A DNA stretch of 11,296 nucleotides from a virus (Duplodnaviria > Heunggongvirae > Uroviricota > Caudoviricetes), in the IMG/VR virus record IMGVR_UViG_2534681736_000004. One strand, written 5' to 3'. A model generated the notes under the pieces. It made no database searches. It was not told the origin of the DNA and worked only from the letters and a program-made list of their open reading frames with translations. Made by a program: the position numbers and the translations under genes. This document shows, piece after piece, positions 7,238 to 7,648 of this stretch. Position 1 is the stretch's first letter. Each line of letters opens with the position of its first letter.

Positions 7238-7648
7238 GTGTGCGTTTCTCCTGCTCTATCCTGTTTGCCTGACTGACCAGCAAGGGAATTTCACTGATCG
7301 GCATATTCAGCAATTCGAAAGGATTAATGCGCCAGTAGCTGGCGCAGTCAAAGAAGCGATCAGTGAGGTATTCAGCCGTCAGGCCTGGAGGAAAAAACCA
7401 GCCACAAGCCACGCCGCTGCATTCAGGTCTGCCGGAGACATCTGGTCGACAGAGCTTTGCGGCACTTTCGCCAGCCGCACAATGTATTTCGACACCACAT
7501 GCGCCAGAAGTCTGACTGACTCATCCTGATTCATCTGGTAGGGATACCCCAGCTCGCGGACATCCTTCCCGGTGGGTTCATCAAACTCCAGTACGGAGAG
7601 TGTCTCGCCATGAGCAGTAATCGGTTTCTTTAACTCAAGCTCTTTCAT
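7224..7648 (-). CDS. Predicted -1 frameshift-extended chaperone product (G-T / E-E' analogue)
   Basis: ORF 7224..7412 is in the -1 frame relative to the chaperone and overlaps its 3' end. That frame is open across the overlap, and slipping at T_TTT_TTC yields ...AGFF-PPGLTAEYLTDRFFDCASYW..., extending about 58 codons and ending 14 nt inside the tape measure gene. The GTG start given in the track for this ORF is probably not used. Confidence 0.4.
7379..7648 (-). CDS. Tail assembly chaperone (Mu gp41-like; lambda G / P2 E analogue)
   Basis: 89 aa ORF, ATG at 7648-7646 sharing one base with the tail tube stop. Lies between the tail tube and tape measure genes, the conserved chaperone position. 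Carries a slippery heptamer 4 codons before its stop. Confidence 0.6.
   Translation of the reverse strand: MKELELKKPITAHGETLSVLEFDEPTGKDVRELGYPYQMNQDESVRLLAHVVSKYIVRLAKVPQSSVDQMSPADLNAAAWLVAGFFLQA
7391..7397 (-). promoter_or_regulatory. Candidate -1 programmed ribosomal frameshift slippery site T_TTT_TTC
   Basis: Minus-strand codons GCT GGT TTT TTC CTC CAG GCC TGA give the heptamer T TTT TTC in X_XXY_YYZ register relative to the chaperone frame (plus strand gaaaaaa at 7391-7397). Confidence 0.45.

Follow-up and report, generated by a model that had tools for sequence, protein, structure and literature searches.

In this work we asked how the tail assembly chaperone gene of an Escherichia coli prophage is read at its 3′ end. 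An apparent gap of 141 nt separates this gene from the tape measure gene and it is the widest gene junction of the operon, the other junctions being 56 nt or less. Is this gap simply intergenic, does it hold a small gene of its own, or is it translated as a continuation of the chaperone after a change of reading frame? The window, by which we mean the whole stretch of 11,296 nt that was analysed, is a block of prophage late genes, all on the minus strand, in which a DNA-circularisation gene and baseplate genes are present besides the tail genes of Table 1. A 1-kb region of it is 98–98.6% identical to the Shigella phages SfV, SfI and SfII and matches prophages of E. coli O157:H7 and of other strains at 100%; the prophage module is present in about 1,100 out of 5,426 complete E. 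coli genomes. The window derives from an E. coli O157:H7 prophage of the SfV-like kind, which has an HK97-like head and a Mu-like contractile tail. As argued below, we consider it very probable, from sequence comparison, that the chaperone gene of this prophage contains a programmed −1 ribosomal frameshift.

The identity of the short protein is clear. It matches the Pfam family PF10109 (Phage_TAC_7) over residues 4–86 with 60.3 bits against a cutoff of 25 (E=1.9e-16), and the family is described as "tail assembly chaperone proteins E, or 41 or 14"; PGAP names the 89-aa gene "phage tail assembly protein". A family scan with NCBIfam and a profile search against solved structures each gave no match. 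The gene stands between the tube gene (PF10618) and the tape measure gene (PF10145), which is the position of the G/GT type of chaperone gene, and the tape measure ATG is preceded by AGGAG about 10 nt upstream.

Table 1. Positions in the window of the tail genes and of the elements of the predicted frameshift
Feature	Position	Strand	Remarks
Tail sheath gene	9500-8004	-	498 aa; PF04984, PF17482, PF17481
Tail tube gene	8004-7648	-	118 aa, directly upstream of the chaperone; PF10618, E=3e-33
Tail assembly chaperone, short product (G/E-like)	7648-7379	-	89 aa; TGA 7381-7379; PF10109
Slippery heptamer U_UUU_UUC	7397-7391	-	X_XXY_YYZ register; P site UUU, A site UUC
Putative -1 extension (T/E′-like domain)	7391-7224	-	55 sense codons + stop; begins by re-reading C7391
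Span of predicted long product (GT/E+E′-like)	7648-7224	-	141 aa = zero-frame codons 1-86 + 55 codons of the -1 frame
Tape measure gene	7237-5402	-	611 aa; ATG 7237; PF10145

In the zero frame the chaperone gene ends with GCT GGT TTT TTC CTC CAG GCC TGA. The sequence-only reading of this locus had proposed a T_TTT_TTC heptamer in register four codons before the stop, and this is what is found at 7397-7391, near the 3′ end of the upstream ORF as in genes of the G/GT type: the A-site TTC is followed by three sense codons and then by the zero-frame stop at 7381-7379. Within the interval 7379-7412, to which the proposal referred, the −1 ORF, counted from its first GTG, overlaps the chaperone gene as far as the chaperone stop, and the heptamer lies inside this interval. 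The −1 frame is open from 7520 to a stop at 7226-7224. That it remains open past the heptamer had been recognised correctly, although its length had been put at about 58 codons where we count 55. Its end falls 14 nt into the tape measure gene, the stop lying at 7226-7224 and the ATG at 7237, exactly as had been proposed, and the −1 ORF therefore has the G/GT-type layout in which it overlaps the upstream ORF and runs to about the start of the tape measure gene. The junction that had been predicted for a fused product, ...AGFF-PPGLTAEY..., is likewise the one obtained by translation, and the predicted sequence across it is ...WLVAGFFPPGLTAEY.... In the 15 minus-strand genes of the window there are only three in-register X_XXY_YYZ heptamers. 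The arrangement in the chaperone gene is more than chance, since its heptamer is the sole one of the three with a −1 frame passing the end of the gene, and this frame fills the widest gap.

How would such a site be used? Most ribosomes would stay in frame and stop at 7379, giving the 89-aa chaperone, and a minority would slip back by one base on U_UUU_UUC, the two Phe-tRNAs re-pairing to UUU UUU. The slipped ribosomes would read 55 more codons in the −1 frame and so produce a protein of 141 aa with the shared N-terminus and an additional C-terminal domain, its translation terminating 14 nt into the tape measure gene. If the products behave like those of lambda G/GT and P2 E/E+E′, the shared N-terminal part would coat the tape measure protein and the rarer extension would recruit tube subunits, so that a fixed low ratio of long to short product would be required for tail assembly. 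The anatomy, the conservation of the slip site, the coding constraint on the −1 frame and the homology to P2 E+E′ are observations, from which we infer that the shift takes place; how efficient it would be and what the two proteins would do are inferred as well.

Which of the known systems is the best model for this locus? In lambda, the G/GT shift is a −1 frameshift which reportedly takes place at G_GGA_AAG (Levin et al. 1993; Xu et al. 2004). The two lambda products are identical at their N-termini and are made at a low ratio of long to short, and no stimulatory structure is required. The order of elements in lambda is the same as in the window, namely a major tail or tube gene, the chaperone with a heptamer close to its 3′ end, the −1 extension and the tape measure gene; however, the heptamer is different and the lambda tail is non-contractile, unlike the tail encoded by the window module. 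A general rule of frameshifting in tail chaperone genes is stated in PMC2628397 and PMC3091744.

A closer counterpart is found in P2. According to PMC3091744, which refers to Christie et al. 2002 and Xu et al. 2004, a −1 frameshift occurs at TTTTTTG in the FETUD tail operon of this phage, and the P2 record annotates a −1 translational frameshift which yields E of 91 aa and E+E′ of 142 aa, where the window would yield 89 and 141 aa. The short proteins of both belong to PF10109, and both genes lie between those for the tube and the tape measure protein. The homologous V-x-G-F column reads ggT TTT TTG in P2 and ggT TTT TTC in the window; both extensions run into the tape measure gene before they stop, by 8 nt in P2 and by 14 nt in the window, and a core of F/Y-W-x-x-P-x-E-L is common to the two. 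Neither has an evident downstream structure, and its absence at the P2 E/E′ site is also stated in PMC3091744. The proteins share only about 20–23% identity, the last base of the heptamer is C in the window and G in P2, and the tail module around the chaperone is Mu/SfV-like in the window, not P2-like. In the E. coli reporter values of Table S3 of PMC4066793, a C-ending heptamer was more efficient than a G-ending one once a stimulator was present. Despite the low identity, an hhalign comparison of a profile of 17 fused proteins with P2 E+E′ gave a probability of 94.5% (E=8e-8, residues 4–133 against 6–137) and aligned VAGFF with VVGFL of P2, from which it follows that the slip sites are homologous. 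The extension of the window has no match to Pfam PF06528 (Phage_P2_GpE) at E<=10, whereas P2 E′ matches at 2e-22; the window extension is thus a divergent relative which lies outside that Pfam model. The suggestion in the sequence-only reading that the architecture mirrors P2 E/E′ and lambda G/GT agrees with the PF10109 assignment, with the tube and tape measure genes on the two sides and with the homology to P2 E+E′. Taken as sequence evidence, these comparisons support the view that the window chaperone adds one more member to the known tail-chaperone frameshift class and is a homolog of P2 E/E+E′.

More questions are raised by phage Mu. The sheath, tube, DUF2635, DNA-circularisation and baseplate genes of the window are Mu-like, and phage records name the Mu-like genes Mup38, Mup39, Mup40 and Mup42; the chaperone lies at the same position. 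Mu gp41 is 144 aa long, and its extension lies in the +1/−2 frame after CGG GGG CGA with no T-rich heptamer; a −2 frameshift is attributed to it by Xu et al. 2004, as quoted in PMC2628397. In a tblastn search with the fused protein of the window, Mu was not found at E<=1e-3. A Mu-like −2 shift was also considered for the window and rejected: the +1 frame is open for only two codons past the stop, and the extension lies in the −1 frame. As Mu, the nearest phage by tail-gene content, shifts by −2, the apt analogy is with P2 E/E+E′ and lambda G/GT and not with Mu.

If the shift matters to these phages, the site and the two-frame layout should be found in related clusters, and the sequence-only reading had named this as a check. 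With the fused protein as a query, tblastn recovered both halves in two different frames, at 39–77% identity, from the phages ST64B, phiP27, SfIV, F1055, Edwardsiella EPP-1, Pantoea AH07 and Burkholderia BgVeeders33. Further loci came from a scan of one genome per species with two peptide patterns, which found them in Buttiauxella, Citrobacter, Kluyvera, Erwinia, Pantoea, Burkholderia, Methylophaga, Rhodocyclaceae, Pseudogulbenkiania, Acetobacteraceae, Accumulibacter and Kiloniellaceae. One of the two patterns contained VAGFF, so the genome set is biased at the level of the amino acids but not of the wobble bases; the phage set obtained by tblastn is free of this bias. Of the 32 loci examined, 29 have a slippery heptamer in register at one and the same G-F-F column of the alignment, followed by a homologous open extension in the −1 frame, and the slip site and two-frame layout characteristic of the G/GT type are thus kept in spite of divergence. 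The proposed conservation of heptamer and overlap therefore holds for nearly all related loci. The 29 loci span several proteobacterial orders (Enterobacterales, Burkholderia, Rhodocyclaceae, Methylophaga, Pseudogulbenkiania, Acetobacteraceae and Kiloniellaceae are represented), with protein identity down to about 30%, and their heptamers are T_TTT_TTC (21 loci), T_TTT_TTT (six), T_TTT_TTG (one) and G_GGT_TTT (one). The zero-frame stop is placed 2 to 21 codons downstream of the slip site, the −1 extension measures 47–61 codons in all of them and the fused products would be 131–153 aa long. Where a tape measure start was found (26 of the 29), the extension ends between 32 nt upstream and 16 nt downstream of it. 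The motif A-x-[YF]-W-[RK]-x-x-P...A-x-R-I is conserved in the extensions across homologs.

The pattern of substitutions also speaks for translation of the extension. All ten close-clade sequences have GGT for the Gly that precedes the Phe pair, whereas the wobble positions of the adjacent Ala and Val codons show all four bases. After the chaperone stop, the variable columns are distributed as 28, 18 and 39 over positions 1, 2 and 3 of the −1 codons, and the window differs from the Buttiauxella copy at 26 nucleotides of the −1 extension, corresponding to 22 synonymous and only 4 non-synonymous codon changes. Since third positions are the most variable and synonymous changes prevail, the −1 extension is evidently under purifying selection, as judged from these substitutions, and is read as protein through the slip site.

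What of the three loci that do not conform? Two of them, L026 from Caballeronia cordobensis and L029 from C. novacaledonica (about 1740–1830 of the locus), are without a slippery heptamer, and their G-F-F is spelled GGC TTC TTC. They nevertheless have a homologous extension domain (...AYFWKISPAEV...), which lies in the +1/−2 frame, as in Mu, and directly after the chaperone stop there is a GTG with a GAGGGG Shine-Dalgarno sequence upstream. Going by these sequences, the Caballeronia extension may be reached by a Mu-like −2/+1 shift or may be a separate gene. The third locus (L035, from an uncultured proteobacterium MAG, 1741–2177 of the locus) has T_TTT_TTC at the usual place, but what follows in the −1 frame is an unrelated run of 143 codons, and a tape measure gene is missing; it is probably a deleted or rearranged tail cluster.

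Variation is also found among very close copies. GG-T6 is kept in 75 of the 80 near-identical IMG/VR copies (37 distinct sequences). Three IMG/VR copies (L091, L097 and L061) are variants of the slip site, two with GGG TTT TTC and one with GGG TTT TTT CTC; in the GGG TTT TTC variants the first position of the heptamer is lost and the U_UUC tetramer is kept. In two others (L040 and L041, at about 1746–1760 of the locus) an extra G, giving GCT GGG TTT TTT CCT, places the two parts in a single frame, from which only the long product would be made. Such a fused protein of 139 aa is present in NCBI as "mu-like prophage FluMu gp41 family protein" and one of 141 aa in Logan only, each in one or two contigs. 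These in-frame fused copies may be real mutants or assembly errors. The variants and exceptions together leave the frameshift model standing; they show that the site can mutate and that other solutions have been adopted within the family.

How efficient could the shift be? According to Table S3 of PMC4066793, U_UU.U_UU.C is one of the shift-prone motifs in E. coli: frameshifting was 0.12% for the motif alone, rose to 0.89% when the IS911 stimulators were added and reached 7.6% when the IS3 pseudoknot was present. With a value of about 0.1% for the heptamer alone in a reporter, the efficiency at the window site could be very low. The 111 nt downstream of the site fold well (z=−3.7). The 10-bp stem on which this fold depends, CACUGAUCG/CGAUCAGUG, was considered as a downstream stimulator and rejected, as it is lost even in close relatives. 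Folding of 22 homologs gave no common structure at the usual spacing of 5–9 nt, and there is no Shine-Dalgarno-like stimulator in the 6–17 nt before the heptamer. RNAalifold retained only a hairpin about 44 nt downstream, for which it found no covariation. This hairpin, UGCGCCAG-CUA-CUGGCGCA, lies at 7346-7328 on the minus strand, about 44 nt 3′ of the heptamer and inside the −1 extension, where it covers the codons for C-A-S-Y-W-R. In nine of ten close relatives its stem is invariant, synonymous positions included, and the wobble base in the loop varies, whereas about 80% of third positions in the extension are variable overall. It is missing from other clades and its distance from the heptamer is too great for a classical stimulator. 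As no conserved stimulator was found, we expect the ratio of long to short product to be low, with a value that is not predictable from the sequence.

It is tempting to see in these observations a family which has repeatedly switched the mode in which its long product is made: PF10109 members would use a −1 shift at U_UUU_UUY in the window, in the clades of ST64B and P27 and in P2, a −2 shift in Mu, an extension in the +1/−2 frame, possibly started independently, in Caballeronia and in-frame fusions in a few E. coli, and the weak heptamer of the SfV clade may be tuned by the UGCGCCAG-CUA-CUGGCGCA hairpin. We regard this broader idea as unlikely. If it were true, the PF10109 family would be a natural series for the evolution of the recoding mode and of the ratio of long to short product.

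Could the long protein, or the open frame, have another origin? RNA polymerase adding one U on the T6 run would lead to an identical ...AGFFPPGL... protein, and as the product is the same, mass spectrometry could not separate the two mechanisms. The site is indeed a homopolymer, with T6 in the window and T7 in the clade of ST64B, P27 and SfIV, and PMC4066793 describes U7/A7 runs as avoided in all frames, possibly because of transcriptional slippage. Yet the run begins at codon position 3 of the X_XXY_YYZ pattern in all 29 loci, and the homologous site of P2 is annotated as translational. Efficient transcriptional slippage in bacteria generally needs runs of about 8–9 or more. One of the homologous loci (L037) has four Ts only and still a canonical, in-register G_GGT_TTT, which fits slippage of the ribosome and not of the polymerase. 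We therefore find transcriptional slippage very unlikely. That the −1 ORF is an independent small gene, encoding 62 aa from the GTG at 7412, seems to us extremely improbable. In 18 of the 29 homologous loci, the part of the −1 frame that leads from its upstream stop to the heptamer is free of ATG, GTG and TTG codons, and independent initiation of the extension is impossible there; in some homologs this frame opens just 3–10 codons before the slip site. The homologous E′ of P2 has no start of its own and is made as E+E′. There is a GTG at 7412, but no Shine-Dalgarno-like sequence precedes it. A separate gene would agree with the "hypothetical protein" of 60–63 aa which is called in the phage record ON470584 and in more than 900 contigs, with the PHROGs family of its own that the −1 ORF has (phrog_32181, "unknown function", which the extension matches) and with the two Caballeronia loci, whose own GTG and GAGGGG Shine-Dalgarno sequence are plausible.

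A different objection concerns the state of this particular prophage. The architecture might be an inert relic, inherited from a functional phage, with no product made or needed in a defective copy. The baseplate assembly gene (about 2953–4016, minus strand) does carry a 16-nt deletion at 3786–3787, between GAACGGG direct repeats, when compared with NZ_CP027452; as a result, the baseplate assembly protein of 359 aa is divided between the ORFs 4016-3747 and 3690-2953, and PGAP flags the gene as "frameshifted" in identical O157:H7 genomes, e.g. FRIK944. The deleted form is present in only 7 of 1,088 E. coli genomes. The prophage copy of the window is thus probably tail-defective, and with a broken baseplate gene the slip signal may no longer serve a function in the source genome. 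However, the chaperone, heptamer, extension and tape measure gene are intact and identical to copies in many other genomes, and the signal acts on any transcribed mRNA whatever the state of other genes. Moreover, the relic reading concerns the current usefulness of the element and not its identity. On balance, we think it highly improbable that the arrangement is an inert relic, and a −1 ribosomal frameshift remains our preferred reading.

Has this frameshift been noticed before? None of the RefSeq/PGAP and phage records examined annotates a frameshift here; they show the −1 ORF as a separate "hypothetical protein" or leave it as a 141-nt "intergenic" gap. The free-standing "hypothetical protein" calls are an annotation artefact of the unrecognised frameshift. 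A literature search, whose reach ended short of the tables of Xu et al. 2004, gave no mention of a frameshift in the tail genes of SfV or ST64B, and a site of the window type may already be listed by these authors. As far as the available text of Sharma et al. 2014 goes, five prophage clusters were reported, of which three are named, ECs1801 (tail assembly chaperone), ECs1123 (tail fiber) and ECs1759 (prophage exonuclease). None of these three is on T_TTT_TTC, and the three T_TTT_TTC clusters shown there are the cellular genes yegX, ybcH and yddA. The value of the present finding is mainly for annotation, as, once the shift is recognised, a false orphan gene disappears and the two chaperone proteins are correctly described for SfV-, SfI/II/IV-, ST64B- and P27-like phages, among which there are serotype-converting and Stx-converting members. 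The slip site is an ordinary feature which genome annotations have omitted, and the understanding of tail assembly and of frameshifting is unchanged by it.

Lastly, a comparison with the prophage of strain 2014C-3338 (L001, NZ_CP027452), which is nearly identical in other respects, gave a separate observation on decay. In that strain the baseplate J/gp47 gene is a pseudogene (1321–2378 of the locus, corresponding to 935–1993 of the window) with a 1-nt difference at window position 1708, and in the window the same gene is intact. Since different pseudogenes are found in the window and in 2014C-3338, copies of the prophage decay at different tail genes.
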